A DNA stretch of 63,802 nt, the filler included, from Chrysochromulina tobinii (Eukaryota), in the NCBI GenBank assembly GCA_001275005.1. It is 12 parts of 12 records of this genome, joined end to end, with 100 filler letters (N's around TTAATTAATTAA, not from the genome) between each part and the next. Parts side by side here need not be neighbours in the genome. Positions count along the whole stretch, not along the records: positions 1 to 11,914 come from JWZX01000305.1; 11 more parts are not named here. One strand, written 5' to 3'. Positions 2,421-16,661 of this stretch are shown piece after piece. Within the stretch, counting starts at the first letter, position 1; every line of letters starts with the position of its first letter. The notes beneath the pieces are model-generated. The model ran no database searches. It was not told the origin of the DNA and was given only the letters and a program-made list of their open reading frames with translations. A program made the position numbers and the translations under genes.

Positions 2421-3221
2421 ATGGCCCAGCTGCCCATCGCCTTCGGTGGCCCACCAAATGCTCGTGGCCTGGCCGTATTGTGCGGTTGGGGAGGCTCGAC
2501 TCTCAAAAATGTCTGCAAGTACGCGAGCGTGTGGCACAAGCTCGGCTGGCGCACGGCGACTGCGGCCATGTCCATCGACATGACCTTCTTTCCCGGCTCA
2601 TGGACGCCCGCCAATGAGGTGGCGCGCACTCTTGCGAAGGAGTGCCGCTTGCATCGGGAGCGCCATGGACCCGACGCATTGATCGCGTCTCATGCGCTTA
2701 GCAATGGTGGTGTCATGCTGATGCTCTCTGTACTCGAGGAGGCGTCTTCGGACGAGCCCGTCCGCTTTGACGGCGCAGTATACGACAGCGCACCGTCATC
2801 GAAGCATCTTCCCCTGCCCATGGGGGCACCATTGATCATCATCTCTGCTGGCTTGCCAGCTGCGGAGACGGCCAAGTCGCTTGCTTTACATGTCCCCTAC
2901 TGCTTGTTCACGTCTTTGTTGTTTCCGATTCGCACACCGCCACCCCCGATTGGCCTGTTCCCGAAGCTCTTCGGCATCGAAACGAACCCTCCACGACCCG
3001 AGCTCTTCATCTACGGCGAGGAGGACCGGCTCATTCCGCCGGACCAGGTGGAGGCCTTCATCAGTCTGCGCGTGGCTCAGGGAAGTGCGGTGCAGACTAG
3101 CGGACGCCTCGCCTGCTCTCCGCACGTGAGCCATCTGAGGTCGTACCCTGAAGTGTACGAGAAGGCCTTGGCCAGCTTTGCTGCCTCCCTCGAAAACCCT
3201 CGCCCAGTCTCCAGGTTATGA
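2421..3221 (+). CDS. DUF829/TMEM53-like alpha/beta-hydrolase-fold protein
   Basis: VLCGWGGSTLKNVCKYA, HALSNGG, VYDSAP, LFIYGEEDRLIP and SPHVSHLRSYPEVY motifs. Confidence 0.8.
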   Translation: MAQLPIAFGGPPNARGLAVLCGWGGSTLKNVCKYASVWHKLGWRTATAAMSIDMTFFPGSWTPANEVARTLAKECRLHRERHGPDALIASHALSNGGVMLMLSVLEEASSDEPVRFDGAVYDSAPSSKHLPLPMGAPLIIISAGLPAAETAKSLALHVPYCLFTSLLFPIRTPPPPIGLFPKLFGIETNPPRPELFIYGEEDRLIPPDQVEAFISLRVAQGSAVQTSGRLACSPHVSHLRSYPEVYEKALASFAASLENPRPVSRL

Positions 3222-8395: not shown

Positions 8396-9011
8396 CTACT
8401 TCACCTCGTGAACACCATATCGATCGATAACAACAGTAGTGCGACCATTTTCGACCACCTCAACCACGTCGTGAGCACTGTCGTCATCGCTGTCATCGAA
8501 GAGCTGCTCCTCGTGTGTTGTCGGGTGATGTCGCCTATATCCGTGGTTCAGCGCTGCATTCGAGGGCTCCTCCCGCCTCAAAGGTAGCGGGTTCAGCGCA
8601 GACGGGTCGTTGATCCGGCGCGAAGCAGCGCACGAAGGGCAGCGCAGGTCCTGTGTGGGGCACGCGCGTGAGCCACAGCAGAGGCATTGCGTCAAGTAGC
8701 CCTCCGAGCGAGTTGCATGGGCGAGCTGCTTGCGCCGGTTGAGTGCCTTCGCCATGGTGGCCTCATCATCCGAGGCGCCCTCGTTGTCGCCGCCGATGGC
8801 CGCCGCACCGCCGTCGGCATCGACGTCATCGCCCATGCAAGCCCCCTCCGGGATACCGACGCCGCCGCCACCTCCGCCTCCGCTGCCACCGCCGCCGCCC
8901 CCCCGTTTGTTCTTCTTTCCACCACGCCTGCTCTTCTTGGCCCCTCCGCCATTGCCGCCGCCGCCACCCTCGCCGCCGCCGCTGCCCTCACCTGCACCCT
9001 CGCTGATCCCG

Positions 9012-9049
<38 letters not shown>

Positions 9050-10066
9050 CGTCACGACGCCCATCTCGCTCAGCAGCCGCGCAGCGAGAGCGCTCTTCCC
9101 GCCCTGCTCGCGCGTCGAGTCCACAGCGCTCGGCACAGCGCTCGTCGCCACGATGGCCCCAGCACTCAGCGCCGCCTCTGCAAAGACCTGCTTGCCCTTC
9201 TTCTTGCCTCCCCCTCCGCCACCGCCGCCGCCGCCGCCGCGGCCGCCGCCGCCGCCGCCCTTGCTCGCTTGTTCCTCGACAGCAAGCTCCGCGAGCAGCG
9301 CCTCGGCCGCCGCGTTCGCCTTTGCCTCCTTGTCCTTGAGCATCGCTGCCAGCTTGCGCTCGTGCTCGGCTTTCTCGGTGGCATCGAACTCGCGCAGCAC
9401 CAGCTCGCATGCCTTGGCCTTGAGAGTGACGGCCTCCATGAGCGGCGTGCGCCCGTCGCGCTTGAGCGTCCGATTCGCGCCGGCCATGCACAGCGCACGC
9501 ACCGAGCCCTCGCGCTTACTCTCCACAGCAAAGTGCAGCGGGGTCGCCCCGTTGGGCTGCTGCGCATTGATGTTCGCCTTCGCACGCACCAGCAGCTTGA
9601 TCACCTTGGCGCAATCAGCCCATGCGGCCGCATGCAACGACGTGCTGCCCCAATCGCTCTGCGCGCTAATGTCCGCCTTGCTCTGCAGCAGGAACGAGCA
9701 GCAGTCGGCGTGCCCGTTGGCCGCTGCGAACGCCAACGCCGTGTTGCCATTCTCTCCGCGCGTGTCCGGGTTGGCCTTCTTGGCGATGAGGGAGGTCAAC
9801 GTCGCCAAGTCGCCGCGCTCCGCCGCCTCGCACAGTTCGGGCATCGGCTTGAAGTAGCAGCCCTCGCCCGACTCGATCATCTGAACCTTGCGCTGCATAT
9901 CGCGTTCCATCTTATCGACGGCCGCCTCGAGGTCACTCGCCGTACTCTGCTCCTTTGTAAGTGCCAGGTGGCTGAGAATTTCCTCGCGGGACACTGCCTT
10001 ACCTCGCCTCACGCGCTCGATGAAACCGAGCTCCTCGACGCCCTGCGCACTCGTGGTTGGCGGCAT
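8396..10066 (-). CDS. ankyrin-repeat protein with coiled coil, poly-Gly tracts and a C-terminal Cys cluster
   Basis: About four ankyrin repeats (NGNTALAFAAANGH, WGSTSLHAAAW, NGATPLHFAV, DGRTPLMEAV) and CLCC...C...CPSC; start could be 10165. Confidence 0.8.
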
Positions 10067-10302
10067 CGCGACCCCACAGCGGTGTGGCACCACGGTGTAG
10101 AGGTGGTGTCTTGGGTGTCGAATTCTAAACATAGGCTGTGAACGATGGCCTGGTTGAGCATACATGCTGGAGGAGCGCCTATTCGAATGACCTTATGCAA
10201 AGATTCCAACCGTTCGGTTTTTATAAAAAAGCGAGTAACGCGTGGCCGTGTCAGGAAAAAGCGAGCGAGACGAGCTGAAAAGCGAGCGTACCCTCTCGTC
10301 GG

Positions 10303-11355
10303 ATGCCGCTGCCCCCAAGCTGCCCCGGCGGGAGCTTTTATCCTGTGACGCTCACCACTCAAACCTGGGCGAATGAGATCAGCGTCAAGATCGATGGCGT
10401 TGCAATCACCTCGGGAACGCTGGCCGACTACCATATGTACACGTACTCGCGCTGCCTCACCCCTGGATCGCACACACTCGTCCTTGTAGACTCTGTGGGG
10501 GACGGCTGGCACGGAGGGTACGTGACGATCAACGGCGTCAACTACGGCGCGACCTTCACCGCTGGGTACTCGCAGACGCACACGTTCTATGTCGGCCCAT
10601 CGCCACCGCCGCCATCGCCCTCCCCCTCGCCGCCATCACCCTCACCACCGCCACCATCGCCGCCATCGCCGCCATCGCCGCCATCGCGGCCGCCGCCCTC
10701 GCCTCCGCCGCCCTCGCAGCCAGTTCCGCTCGTGTCACCGTGGGCACTTGAACTGGCAGTAGAGACGAGCGGCATCGATGTTTCAATCGTCATCATCATC
10801 GCCCTCGCCCTCGCCCTCGCCCTCGCCCTCGTCTTCATGTGCCTTCGTCGCCGTCTGGTGACGTTCGTTTCAGGGGGCACGAAGCTCTACCACCAAACAG
10901 ATGTTGCGACCGCCAAAATCATCCTTCAGACGCAGCAGATGAAGCCAGGGAATGTTGGGGTGGCTGGGGGTGGCATCTACTTTGCCACGACTCCTGAGCT
11001 CACGGGCCACAAGGCGCACAGGCACGGCGTGATCCTGGAGGCGACGGTTGCCCTAGGTTCGATCCACACCCTTGAGGCCGCCGGGGACCCCAACATGACG
11101 CTGCAGAAGCTCCAGTCCTTGGGCTATGACTCCGTATGCATCGCCCGGCCCGTTTCGAGAGGCCAGGAGTACGTCGTGTACGACCCGAAGCAGGTGTTGA
11201 GCATCCGCTGGCATGCACCAGCCTCTCCCCCTCGTGCGCGTGCGCCGTGCGCCGCCGGCTGCGGCTTCTTCGGCAGCACCGACACTGGTGGCATGTGCTC
11301 TAAGTGCTACGAGGTCAAAGAGATCGGAACCAATGTGAGACAACCGCATACCTAG
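10303..11355 (+). CDS. single-pass membrane protein: DSxGDGW beta domain, Pro-rich stalk, TM, PARP/Gig2-like ADP-ribosyltransferase domain, A20 zinc finger
   Basis: LVDSVGDGWHGG; SPPP stalk; TM about 10780-10845 followed by RRR; LYHQT...GGGIYFA...GVILEATVALG...GYDSV...QEYVVYDPKQV; CAAGCGFFGSTDTGGMCSKCY. Confidence 0.8.
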   Translation: MPLPPSCPGGSFYPVTLTTQTWANEISVKIDGVAITSGTLADYHMYTYSRCLTPGSHTLVLVDSVGDGWHGGYVTINGVNYGATFTAGYSQTHTFYVGPSPPPPSPSPSPPSPSPPPPSPPSPPSPPSRPPPSPPPPSQPVPLVSPWALELAVETSGIDVSIVIIIALALALALALVFMCLRRRLVTFVSGGTKLYHQTDVATAKIILQTQQMKPGNVGVAGGGIYFATTPELTGHKAHRHGVILEATVALGSIHTLEAAGDPNMTLQKLQSLGYDSVCIARPVSRGQEYVVYDPKQVLSIRWHAPASPPRARAPCAAGCGFFGSTDTGGMCSKCYEVKEIGTNVRQPHT

Positions 11356-12033
11356 CTCTCCAACAATGTGAGAAGTGTTGTCCGCTTGCTGCCACGCTTA
11401 AAGTGGTGCAGAGGGGCTGGACCTGGAGCGTGGCATCATGAGTGCGGCCGGTCGGGTCGACCGGTCGGGTACGCGGTAGAAACACACGAGAGTTCGGTAG
11501 CAGAGACGGGGTCTTTTGAGACGTTCAGATTGCGTTAAGTGTTGTGGCTTCGCCTTCGCTTCCGCACCACCTTCCGCTTACAGTTACACGTACATGTCGA
11601 GCGCCGTCAGTGCGCGATGGGCGTGGTGCTGATACGGCTGTTTTGTACGCCGGGTACGCATTCCGGAGTACAAGTCAAGTGACACACCGACCACCGTAGC
11701 TACAACGCAAGTGACGTCTCATCAACAGACCAAAGCAGCACATATGAGCCTCGCCCTCTCCGACAGGACACACTCTCATCCCTTTGCCTTCAAAACTAAG
11801 TCACAAGGCCCTCTCACTGGGGGCGTCGCACCGGCATTGGTGGCGGCGGCTTGCCGCGGCCCGCGGGCACCGGCGGCGGCGGCGCGGCCCGCGGCCCTCC
11901 GCGGCCCGCGCCGGNNNNNNNNNNNNNNNNNNNNNNNNNNNNNNNNNNNNNNNNNNNNTTAATTAATTAANNNNNNNNNNNNNNNNNNNNNNNNNNNNNN
12001 NNNNNNNNNNNNNNCACGACGACGTTCGGCGCG

Positions 12034-15000
12034 GTGCCGGCCTGCACGCGCGGCTCTCTCGAGGCCCTCAAGGCGCGCGTCGCGGCCAAGTCGCTCTCCG
12101 ACATGACATCGACGGGCGCCAAGTTGCACCCGACGCTCGATGACATCCAGACGACGCTGATGGTCTCGATCAGCAGCTATCTGGGCTGGCTGCCTGAGAC
12201 CGATGCCTTCAAGGCAAAGAACACCATCGACTTTGCGGGGGCCGCGCACGAGACGGATCCGGCTTCCATGCCGCAGACGTGCTCGTCCACGATGGGCGCC
12301 TCCCTTGTCGCGACGGCCCCGGCCCCTCTTCCCGGTCTGCTGGCGGTGCTCGGTCTGCTCTGCGCCTGTGGGGAGAGGAGCGGGGGGGGCGCCGTGGGGA
12401 GCACTTGCATGCTGGCACTGCTCGGTCTGCTCTGCGCGGTACTGTACGGTGCCGTCCAGGCCTTTGCGGCGCACGGCGCCTCGGCCCTCGCCTCAATCCC
12501 GGGGGCGCCGCTGCCCGAAGGCCGCCGTGCCGTCAGCGCTACCTCTCCCTCGTGCCGACCCTCTGCTCGGCGCGGCTCGGTGGGCCGCTTTGGGTCCGCG
12601 CCTCGGCTCGTCGGCGTGCTCTTCCTCACCCTGGTGGTGGGCTTCGCCAGCCCGCAGACATCACCGTCACCCGAGCCATCCCCATCGCCATCACCCGAGC
12701 ACGACCAGACCTGCACGGAGACGTGCATCTACGCCTTGGATGGTTGGTGCGACGATGGCGGAGCCGGAGCCGTATATTCGGATTGCAGCCTCGGCACCGA
12801 CTGCACCGACTGCGGCCCTCAAATGTCGCCGCCGCCTCCCTCGCCATCTTTGCCCCCGCCCCCGCCATCACCGCCTCCTTCGCCACCATCTCCGCCCTCG
12901 CCACTCTCGCCGCCATCACCACCACCCTCGCCGCCCTCGCGCCCGCCAGCGCAGCCCCCCAGACCGGCTCAGCCTGGCTGGGGTCTTGAGGCACGGAACG
13001 TAGCTGGTCGCCAACGGCGCACCCCTCCACCGCGGGACTATGCACAGGACCTCCGGCCTAACGGCCACCCGACGGCGTTCGCACCGCCCAACTGCTCGGC
13101 GCCAGGGCGCGTGGGCTGCGTCGCCATGCCCAGGCCCGCCCGGGCGAAGCCCGCACCAGGAGTCAGAGCTGCGCTCCTGCCGCCGACGTGCCACTTGAGC
13201 AACGAGACCGGATGCCTGCGCCTGCCCAAGCCAATGGTGAGGACGGGAGGAGAGCTGCTGCCCAGTAGTGAGGTTGTCATCCAGTTTCGCAGCTCCGACC
13301 TGCCCCACGGCAGCACGAACATGGCGATCGCGGACGTGGACGGCGACGGCGACCTCGACGTGCTGCTTGGGAACTCTCCCAGCCAAGTGCTGCTCAACGC
13401 GGGCGATGGCACCTTCCCGACGAGCATCACGCTGCCCGGCGGCGGCGCGTACACGAGCTCGATCGCGGCGGCGGACGTCGACGGCGACGGGGACCTCGAC
13501 GTGCTGCTTGGGAACTATGGCAGTCCCAGCCAAGTGCTGCTCAACGTGGGCGGCGGCACCTTCCCGACGAGCATCACGCTGCCCGGCGGCGGCGCGGACA
13601 CGTTCTCGATCGCGGCGGCGGACGTCGACGGCGACGGCGACCTCGACGTGCTGCTTGGGAACTTGGGCAGTCCCAGCCAAGTGCTGCTCAACGCGGGCGA
13701 TGGCACCTTCCCGACGAGCATCACGCTGCCCGGCGGCGACACGTACACGAGCTCGATCGCGGCGGCGGACATCGACGGCGACGGCGACCTCGACGTGCTG
13801 CTTGGGAACTTGGGCAGTCCCAGCCAAGTGCTGCTCAACGCGGGCGACGGCACCTTCCCGACGAACATCACGCTGCCCGGCGGCGGCGCGGACACGTACA
13901 CGAACTCGATCGCGGCGGCGGACGTCGACGGCGACGGCGACCTCGACGTGCTGCTTGGGAACTCTCAGAGTCCCAGCCAAGTGCTGCTCAACGCGGGCGA
14001 CAGCACCTTCCCGACGAACATCACGCTGCCCGGCGGCGGCGCGTACACGCCCACGTTCTCGATCGCGGCGGCGGACGTCGACGGCGACGGCGACCTCGAC
14101 GTGCTGCTTGGGAACTATGGCAGTCCCAGCCAAGTGCTGCTCAACGCGGGCGACGGTACCTTCCCGACGAACATCACGCTGCCCGGCGGCGGCGCGGACA
14201 CGTACACGAACTCGATCGCGGCGGCGGACGTCGACGGCGACGGCGACCTCGACGTGCTGCTTGGGAACTTGGACACTCCCAGCCGAGTGCTGCTCAACGC
14301 GGGCGGCGGCAGCTTCCCGACGAGCATCGAGCTGCCTGGCGGCAGCGCGCCCACGAGCTCGATCGTGGCGGCGGACGTGGACGGCGACGGCGACCTCGAC
14401 GTACTGCTTGGGAACTGGGGCAGTCCCAGCCAAGTGCTGCTCAACGTGGGCGGCGGCACCTTCCCGACGAGCATCACGCTGCCCGGCGGCGGCGCGAACA
14501 CGTTCTCGATCGCGGCGGCGGACGTCGACGGCGACGGCGACCTCGACGTGCTGCTTGGGAACTCTCAGAGTCCCAGCCGAGTGCTACCCTTCATCCGGTG
14601 CTCCGAACGTGGCACCGCACGCAGCCGCTACGGCAACGGATGCGTTCGCTGTCCAACTCCGTCCACTCGCCGCGACGACATGATCGACGTCTGTTACGAG
14701 TGCGACGAGCACACCCAGCTCGATGCCTCCGGTGCGTGCGTCGCTTGCACGGAGGGCAGCGAGCGCGTCCTCGGCGCAAGCCGGTGCACGCGCTGCCCCG
14801 CGGGCAAGCGCCACGCGGCCACGGGCACCGTCTGCATCCCCTGCTCTCCGGGAGAGTACGTGAACTTCCAGGGCCTCTTTGATCCAACGACGTGCTTGCC
14901 CTGCCTCCCGGGCTCGTACAACCCGACGTCTGGTGCGAGCGCATGCACGCCGTGCCCACCTGCGACGTTCTCGTCAAACTTGCGCGCGGTCGAATGCTCA

Positions 15001-15878
15001 GCGTGCCCTCGCGGCGGCTTCTGCCCTATGGCGGGCGCAGCCGCGCTCAGCCTGACGTTTTCGCCGTGCCCCGCTGGGACCTACAACCCGGACGAGGGAT
15101 CGTCGACAAATACCTCGTGCCGCTCTTGCCCCGCTGGCAAAGCCAACTCCGTGCCCCAATCGACTGCGGCCTCGGCGTGCAGAGCATGCCTTCCCGGGTC
15201 TTTTGCTGCACAAAACGGCTTTGCCATATGCGACCTCTGCCCAGCAGGCAAGTTCACGTCGACGTCGGGCAGCACCGCCTGCCAGCCGTGCACGCCGGGC
15301 TACTACTGCGCCGAGGGCGCAGCCACCCCTGTGCCGTGTCCTCGCGGCAAGTACAACAACCGGACGGGTCTCGAGTATGCCGTTGGTTGCGAGCCGGTCG
15401 GTTTTGGATTTTGGGCTCCGACGGGGAGTGATTTCCCCATCCCGTGCCCGTCGGGCTTCTCGTGCCCTGGGTACTTCAACGACAACGTGACGTTCGGCTC
15501 CCAGCCCCTCATCCTCCCATCGGGCGGCCTGACCCCGGTGGTCGTGGTCGAGACGCAGACAGTCGAGACGGCCACGGGCTCTCTCTCCCTTAGCGCGCCA
15601 CTCTCGTCCTTCTTGAACAACGCGTCCCGTCAGATCCAGTATCGCCAAACCATCGCCGCACAGCTCGGCATTCCGTGGCAGGACCTGCAACTCGACTTTT
15701 CGGCGGCTCCGCCGTCTGCTGGGCGTCGGCTGCAGACGAGCTCCACCATCGTCACGTACACCATCGTTCGGACGGTGACCACGAATCCCGCCACCAGCAT
15801 CGCCACCAGCAACGCGAGCGGTCCACCCGTCGTGGCCCCATCTTTTGCTCTCAACAACCTCGATCCCGCGGTCCTCGG
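12034..15878 (+). CDS. large surface protein with nine FG-GAP/VCBS repeats and Cys-rich TNFR/GCC2-GCC3-like repeats (partial at both contig ends)
   Basis: Nine ADVDGDGDLDVLLGN repeats (about 13320-14580), CxxCPxGxY repeats (14640-15480), CDDGG..C..GTDC.DCG module, RRLQ motif. Confidence 0.85.
13321..14586 (+). repeat. coding tandem repeat, ~145-155 bp x9 (FG-GAP units)
   Basis: Near-identical nucleotide units GACGTCGACGGCGACGGCGACCTCGACGTGCTGCTTGGGAAC. Confidence 0.95.
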
Positions 15879-16661
15879 NNNNNNNNNNNNNNNNNNNNNN
15901 NNNNNNNNNNNNNNNNNNNNNNTTAATTAATTAANNNNNNNNNNNNNNNNNNNNNNNNNNNNNNNNNNNNNNNNNNNNGATGAAATGCAATGAAAATGGA
16001 GAAAATGCATCAGAATGCATTAATATGCATTAGAATGCGTATGTTAAAAAACAACACCACTTTCGTTAAAAAACAACACGTATCCCAGCCCGACACGATA
16101 CTCGAGAGGCAGCAACGAGCCGCCTCTATATACACACCCTACAGTCGCATCAACACTAAGGCCCTCTGTTGCACTCATCGAGACTGCCTCTGTGCCTGAG
16201 TGTATCTTGACATATGCCACCAGCTCCACTCCTCGACCTCCACATGCGGCTCTCCGGCTCTCGCGCGTCGTGCAGCTGCCGGTTTAAAGGAACGCGGTTG
16301 GACATGGAAGTGCACGGCCTTGATGACATTCAAGCATCGAAATTTACGGCGGTCTGTCATTCTACAACGAGTCCTAAAGCTGCACGGACAGACACGGGAT
16401 TGCACGGACTGACACGGGATTGCGCACTGCTTCAACGCGTGAATGCTGCCGGAAAATGCTGCTCCGCGTACGGGGCTCCAGCACGTGCAGCGGTGCAGGA
16501 CGTGCTGCTCGCAAGGTACTTTTATTAGGATCCCCGTATCATATCCAGTTGGCAGGGTACCAGTTGGTAGGGTAGTTTTAGTAGGATCCCCGGTAGTTTA
16601 AGGGTAGTTTTGTCAGGTGCCAGTTGGTAGGGTAGCTTGGTCGAACTTACAAATCTCTCTC

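Follow-up and report, generated by a model that had tools for sequence, protein, structure and literature searches.

An open reading frame in the genome of the freshwater alga Chrysochromulina tobinii, whose algal group has little-known antiviral defences, raises two questions: whether a single membrane protein joins an ectodomain to a cytosolic ADP-ribosyltransferase (ART) and a ubiquitin-binding zinc finger, and whether the frame that suggests this is a natural gene. The frame lies on the plus strand at 10303..11355 of the window, by which we mean the whole stretch of 63,802 nucleotides that was analyzed, and translation confirms that it encodes 350 amino acids. A sequence-only reading had described the product as a receptor-like ART with an A20 finger, with no evident signal peptide and little room for an exon upstream. 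Both of the latter observations held. Hydropathy over nine residues is 1.18 at the start of the frame, versus 3.17 for gene B described below, and the three forward frames of 10067–10302 contain no hydrophobic stretch (best nine-residue value, 1.47), so that an upstream exon supplying a signal peptide was rejected. Upstream of this interval is a divergent ankyrin-repeat gene on the minus strand (8396..10066), which anchors the locus and, in the locus comparison, gave no sign of a functional partnership with the ART frame. Downstream, the window is a join of 12 contigs with 11 N linkers of 100 bp, each with an all-frame stop spacer, one of them at 11915..12014 and the others at 15879, 24559, 28019, 32886, 35034, 39217, 54015, 56292, 57743 and 60211. 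Gene order across the linkers is artificial, and genes beyond 11914 are therefore not neighbours of the frame.

Probably two tandem genes behind a single frame

A scan of metagenomes for the locus yielded 68 loci, and the context of the start codon was checked in 71. In three other assemblies (L001, L005 and L011), which may stem from one culture campaign and so may not be fully independent, the DNA further upstream, ankyrin gene included, agrees with the window at 99.9%, and two tandem paralogs, A and B, occupy the place of the single frame, with the ankyrin gene upstream of A. Gene A, of 279 amino acids, starts at the window's ATG and encodes a β module, stalk, transmembrane (TM) segment, linker and A20 finger, with neither an ART domain nor a signal peptide. 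Gene B, which is whole in L001 and present minus its C-terminal end in L005, encodes 659 amino acids comprising a signal peptide, a Cys-rich CDDGG module, a β-rich domain, a Pro stalk, the β module and a C-terminal part with stalk, TM, ART and A20 finger. In L001 and L005 the match to the 3' half of the window restarts 2016 bp later, and those 2016 bp are missing from the window.

The alleles of the window are of A type over 10303..10371 (+), where an ATG stands in the place of a Pro codon and A alleles occur at 10338, 10359 and 10371, and of B type from 10620; the 248 bp between them (10372..10619, +) are a repeat with the same sequence in both genes, somewhere within which the junction lies. 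The A-type start context was found in 3 of the 71 loci (L001, L005 and L011), and all three run on into the ART-less A tail, whereas all four loci that carry a B tail and extend past the repeat (L001, L002, L003 and L005) have a Pro run in place of the ATG. Gene A is a copy truncated at its 5' end, with its ATG in the former Pro run. These contexts do not support the earlier view of 10303–11355 as one natural gene, and the 350-residue frame is probably an assembly collapse of the neighbouring paralogs, with the 5' end of A joined to the 3' end of B. The two-gene structure explains the absence of a signal peptide from the frame, and the odd, signal-less architecture, as a probable assembly collapse, makes a warning case.

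An alternative is that unequal crossing-over joined genes A and B into a true deletion allele, in which case the protein made by this strain would lack a signal peptide. The reading frame continues across the junction, and exactly the sequence of the window would result from recombination within the 248-bp repeat; moreover, contigs do not bridge the repeat, which leaves room for the joined form. For the same reason, the lack of any contig joining sequence across the 2016 bp is uninformative, since contigs cannot span the repeat. The DNA run X1 contains the two ART alleles private to the window and also, with zero mismatch, the skipped sequence (L001 2197–2693 and 3217–3358), the latter at depths of 60 and 53 with flanks at 47–83, a weak hint against a deletion given that contig depth does not equal copy number. 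Also against it, L004, which is identical to the window over 1400 compared bases, belongs to the same named assembly as L011, where A precedes the N-terminus of B, and RNA contigs (X11–X13) over 10338 and 10359 carry B-type letters only. On this evidence we regard a deletion allele as unlikely and take the frame for a probable collapse.

The combination of domains does not depend on the window alone, as the β module, TM, ART and A20 finger are linked at the DNA level in L001–L003, P0360 and P0361. Contigs from RNA libraries, in which DNA may also occur, cover most of the frame in all four studies examined. The sequence-only reading needed transcripts that link the TM part to the ART part, and this link was found in part: the TM-to-ART step is covered by an X13 contig (10845–11001) and the ART-to-A20 step by an X12 contig (10991–11277), with paralogs contributing, but no single RNA contig extends from the ectodomain to the A20 finger. 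The N-terminal part of gene B is covered by RNA-library contigs of X13, and gene B is likely transcribed as one transcript. RNA contigs over 10034–10301, upstream of gene A, were not found, an absence of cover that proves nothing.

A minimal PARP-like domain

The ART domain (10879..11211, +) models as a PARP core, as had been proposed. Its AlphaFold model has a pLDDT of 92.8 and its top match in Foldseek is PARP4 (TM-score 0.72). A VIA search ranks PARP13 first (Z 11.3, rmsd 2.5, 108 residues aligned) and PARP3 second (Z 11.0, rmsd 2.6, 113 aligned), followed by tankyrase 2, PARP2, PARP1 and PARP4, down to Z 10.3, and the top 15 rows are all PARP-type domains. The earlier description of the domain as PARP/diphtheria-toxin-like thus stands with respect to the H-Y-E ART fold, with the qualification that it is nearer to PARP cores (Z 10.3–11.3) than to diphtheria toxin (Z 8.5). 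A profile search with the domain found PARP3 at E 3e-7 and PARP4 at 2.5e-4, and the ESM Atlas returned PARP-labelled clusters at 0.94. Pfam scores for the isolated domain are weak, with 17.5 bits for the canonical PARP family PF00644, below its gathering score of 26.7, and 18.3 bits for ART-PolyVal.

The catalytic codons are where they had been read, with His at 10891, Tyr at 10978 and Glu at 11167. In an alignment of the domain with 114 relatives, mostly shorter proteins of 40–89% identity whose choice by similarity favours conservation, the triad His (strand 1), Tyr (strand 2) and Glu (strand 5) is each present in 115 of 115 rows and aligns to the motifs of PARP3 and PARP4; H, T, Y and E are invariant, and K49, R94 and a DSV motif are almost fixed. 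The resulting family signature is H-Q-T, YFA, T..K, DSV, R and EY. The H-Y-E triad and the YFA of strand 2 are described for PARP/ARTD enzymes (PMC7955679), and PARP1–4, the tankyrases and PARP13 share with this ART the fold, the triad and the YFA. Relative to them it consists of the ~110-residue core only, follows a TM segment in a type I protein, and departs from the canonical H-G-[ST] motif of strand 1, having H-Q-T in 113 of the 115 rows and H-E-T in the other 2. The second, nicotinamide-stacking Tyr also appears to be replaced by Lys, which lies 11 residues past the triad Tyr in 114 of 115 rows and, by residue count, at the site of the second Tyr of PARP3, although the HMM alignment is gapped there. 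Because of these two departures the NAD+ chemistry of the H-Q-T family may differ from that of PARPs. By fold model and triad, the domain is an ART of the H-Y-[EDQ] clade and a predicted enzyme.

Among minimal PARP-like proteins the closest comparison is with Gig2, to which the sequence-only reading had pointed. Gig2 proteins have minimal PARP-like domains, a lineage-specific expansion and algal members (PMC3617106), with a motif spacing that is similar by eye, and the weak N-terminal PARP likeness used there to define them is seen here as well (Pfam PARP, E 0.003, ART residues 8–72). However, the two algal Gig2 sequences that were compared, of 190 published, have HGT, a GVY strand and E-x-C where this ART has HQT, GIYFA and EYVVY, so that by eye the Gig2-specific C-terminal part differs in its motifs; Gig2 proteins are built of one to four basic units, in an account that, in the portion consulted, mentions neither a TM segment nor an A20 finger (PMC3617106). 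The domain thus resembles Gig2 as a minimal PARP-like unit without looking like a member, to judge from a comparison by eye with two sequences.

A profile built from 36 close relatives matched 1672 clusters (50% identity) at E ≤0.001 among 1.84 billion representatives; the descriptions of the family that follow rest on the best 150 of these clusters plus earlier matches. The ART, of 110 residues, is small and easy to assay, and it opens this large family, most members of which fall under the Pfam PARP cut-off where tested. Soluble forms predominate, as a TM upstream of the ART is missing from 98 of 111 new representatives. Fusion partners of ART relatives include WWE, PBZ and NUDIX domains (readers and erasers of ADP-ribose), a 3CxxC zinc ribbon, HeLo, a kinase and a MOV10-like helicase, which fits a role in ADP-ribose biology and conflict. 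In P0345, P0348 and P0350 the ART lies within or is joined to MOV10/UPF1-like helicases, possibly an RNA-defence context. A stand-alone H-Q-T ART of 55% identity is encoded on an AT-rich viral contig of 624 kb, the size of a giant virus (L069:2929-3417), and ARTs are known in large DNA viruses of microbes (PMC9503650). Prokaryotic relatives were absent from genome contigs in a search with one pattern (0 of 75 pattern matches), which is weak evidence.

Comparison of the ART with its paralogs, after removal of an identical copy and of three rows that contain indels, gave dN/dS values of 0.25–0.64 in six of seven comparisons and 0.95 in the seventh, over few sites. In a quick tree of 171 rows and 111 columns, in which 92 of 168 inner branches are open and which yields neither a donor nor an order of events, the TM-ART-A20 rows sit on very short branches and the TM-bearing members are scattered.

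The A20 finger, ectodomains and membrane topology

The C-terminal finger is a C4 zinc finger of A20 type (11245..11310, +), matched by Pfam zf-A20 (PF01754) at residues 315–336 with 41.7 bits and E 1e-10, well above the cut-off of 21.6, in agreement with the earlier assignment. Its matches in the PDB are ZFAND5 (the best), Rabex-5 and A20, and A20 fingers are counted among ubiquitin-binding domains (PMC7226360). The finger is shared with ZFAND5 and the A20/AN1 stress-associated proteins (SAPs), the AN1 finger of which is absent by Pfam from both the window frame and gene B and was found only in L007. Those SAPs are soluble. In L007 (3-1412) one open frame runs through TM, ART, A20 finger, linker and AN1, the finger having 4 differences in 63 nucleotides; either the receptor is fused here to a complete A20/AN1 protein or the contig is chimeric. 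The near identity of a finger that runs into AN1 suggests recent capture from an A20/AN1 gene, with the reservation that L007 could be chimeric. PARP10 likewise has an ART and ubiquitin-binding modules in one chain; in the portion of the account consulted these are UIMs and no TM is given (PMC10450202), whereas in the present membrane protein an A20 finger follows the ART.

At the other end of the frame, the DxxGDGW module (10315..10596, +), which belongs to no Pfam family, was modelled from 49 rows as a seven-stranded β-sandwich with a pLDDT of 95.3, bearing out the suggestion of a folded N-terminal β-rich domain. Foldseek found no match to it at E ≤0.001 and its ESM Atlas neighbours are all unnamed. 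The best VIA match is a calcium-dependent carbohydrate-binding module (Z 6.1, rmsd 3.0, 83 aligned), followed by PLAT/C2-like domains at 5.3–5.6, all under the tool's trust level. The module recurs, often in tandem, in proteins that have signal-like starts and vWA domains or domains that, from their motifs, we take to be astacin-like or C-type-lectin-like, and this company supports an extracellular location. The second β-rich ectodomain of gene B had no significant match by sequence in Pfam, NCBIfam or the PDB. Named relatives of the gene B ectodomain come from a Chrysochromulina genome, at 85–91% identity. A separate observation concerns the plus-strand gene at 12016–15879, which encodes a large, Cys-rich surface protein with FG-GAP repeats and also has a CDDGG module; a link between this gene and the ART locus was rejected, as it lies on another contig, past the artificial linker.

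A Pro/Ser-rich stalk (10597..10731, +; gene B alleles from 10620) leads to the one TM helix (10786..10854, +; residues 162–180, hydropathy 3.24), with RRR on its C-terminal side as first noted. The receptor-like topology that had been proposed fails for the window frame, which has no signal peptide, and is retained as a prediction for gene B, the hydrophobic start of which (3.17 over nine residues) is a predicted signal peptide by a hydropathy rule rather than a dedicated predictor and which, with one TM followed by RRR, is predicted to be N-out/C-in. Starts similar to that of gene B occur in L008, L015 and L017. The order TM-ART-A20 was present in 15 of 98 matches, from a query that favours such matches and with short metagenome contigs that may be chimeric. 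Among the ART proteins of this set of 98, a TM precedes the domain in 33 of 76, and in 30 of the 33 the net charge is higher after it; in the new representatives with an upstream TM (13 of 111), 9 are more positive after it.

Several paralogs carry differing ectodomains on a TM-ART tail. The same full-length sequence on contigs of 45 and 71 kb (L008 and L009, with a partial copy in L010) combines a signal-like start with a Cys module and has three TMs. In L017, whose sequence breaks off inside the ART, there are two β modules, a His-rich tract and one other domain. L015 has the ectodomains of gene B on a non-ART tail. In L015, L017 and L007 a domain of ~110 amino acids with a GSVI motif lies next to the membrane, before the last Pro run and the TM; this motif recalls the self-cleavage site of SEA domains, and Pfam SEA gave no match. 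In an environmental paralog (L021, L022, L024, L026 and L035) the TM and the ART are out of frame with each other, by a shared frameshift or an intron.

A proposed receptor function and its alternatives

The receptor-like TM-ART-A20 architecture is real and apparently undescribed, shown by the window through a frame that is probably misassembled. It was unknown to the sequence-only reading, and the open-access literature yielded no description of a receptor-type protein that combines an A20 finger with an ART in the cytosol; subscription papers might mention such fusions. Among known membrane-associated ARTs, PARP16 is likewise anchored with a cytosolic ART, but its TM is C-terminal, its luminal part is only a short helix and its triad is H-Y-Y, as described in PMC10450202, where gene B has a signal peptide, a large ectodomain and H-Y-E. 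The ecto-ARTs ART1–5 are surface enzymes of the R-S-E clade that act outside the cell (PMC7955679), whereas the H-Y-E domain of gene B is predicted to be inside.

Enzyme-linked receptors usually signal via kinases, phosphatases or cyclases, and receptor kinases follow a plan of ectodomain, TM and cytosolic enzyme. Gene B has its predicted cytosolic H-Y-E ART at the position where these receptors have a kinase or cyclase. We propose, at a probability of about one in two, that the gene B protein is a type I receptor in which clustering by a ligand drives cytosolic ADP-ribosylation, aimed by the A20 finger or coupled through it to turnover. In detail, it would be a single-pass surface protein with its PARP-fold domain and A20 finger predicted in the cytosol, the β-rich and Cys-rich ectodomains, held out on Pro stalks, would bind a ligand at the surface, for instance a glycan, a virus or a prey cell, and the clustering that follows would switch on or concentrate the ART. 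The enzyme could then use NAD+ to mono-ADP-ribosylate nearby proteins, as its stripped-down core suggests, and binding of ubiquitin by the finger would aim it at ubiquitinated membrane proteins or tie the receptor to endocytic turnover. The outside-in or antiviral signalling put forward in the sequence-only reading is a putative role of this kind. If true, the model would join sensing at the cell surface directly to ADP-ribosylation and ubiquitin through a PARP-fold enzyme in the cytosol.

The solubility of most of the H-Q-T family counts against this reading, as it means that the ART can do without a receptor. The protein might instead be a constitutive ART or NADase tethered to a membrane, with no outside-in switch and with an ectodomain that decides only where it sits (at the cell surface, or on a scale or food-vacuole membrane). 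Many relatives do have several TMs ahead of the ART or just a short TM anchor at the N-terminus, members with a TM are dispersed in the poorly resolved tree, and PARP16 is a known membrane-anchored PARP (PMC10450202); the full-length paralogs, however, retain big, varied, multi-domain ectodomains on stalks, beyond what an anchor needs, and we hold a mere tether to be somewhat unlikely. The shuffling of modules is heavy, as in the gene B ectodomains of L015 with their non-ART tail, and fits drift as well as design. At the far end, the protein would have arisen recently as a by-product of such shuffling, in a genome rich in repeats, and taken as a whole would have hardly any selected function, or none. 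The very short branches of the TM-ART-A20 group, the truncated gene A with its ATG in a former Pro run, the paralog with TM and ART out of frame and the modest selection on the ART all agree with a by-product, but the frames of gene B and of the L008 and L017 paralogs are intact and their topology is consistent, the triad is kept, and matching contigs occur in the RNA libraries of four out of four studies, although DNA can occur there. We judge such a by-product to be the less plausible of these two alternatives, and prefer the receptor reading of gene B.

A broader and more speculative extension, which we offer as doubtful, is that Chrysochromulina has a polymorphic family of receptor ARTs, which would stand as a class of enzyme-linked receptor beside the receptor kinases and cyclases. 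Swappable ectodomains would sense giant viruses or prey, the cytosolic ART and the captured finger would respond, ART-less copies such as gene A would be decoys or by-products, and a giant virus would carry its own copy of the ART.

Two minor features of these loci may be recorded. Long His/Pro-rich tracts occur in the cytosolic tail of one paralog (L015) and in the ectodomain of another (L017:1065-1450). A AAAGCGAGCG motif occurs twice upstream of gene A (window 10258–10288), with a similar motif upstream of gene B, and in DNA runs the summed depth of contigs is very high over the regions of this type in L001 (about 1774–1910 and 2870–3006), which suggests an upstream element repeated genome-wide.
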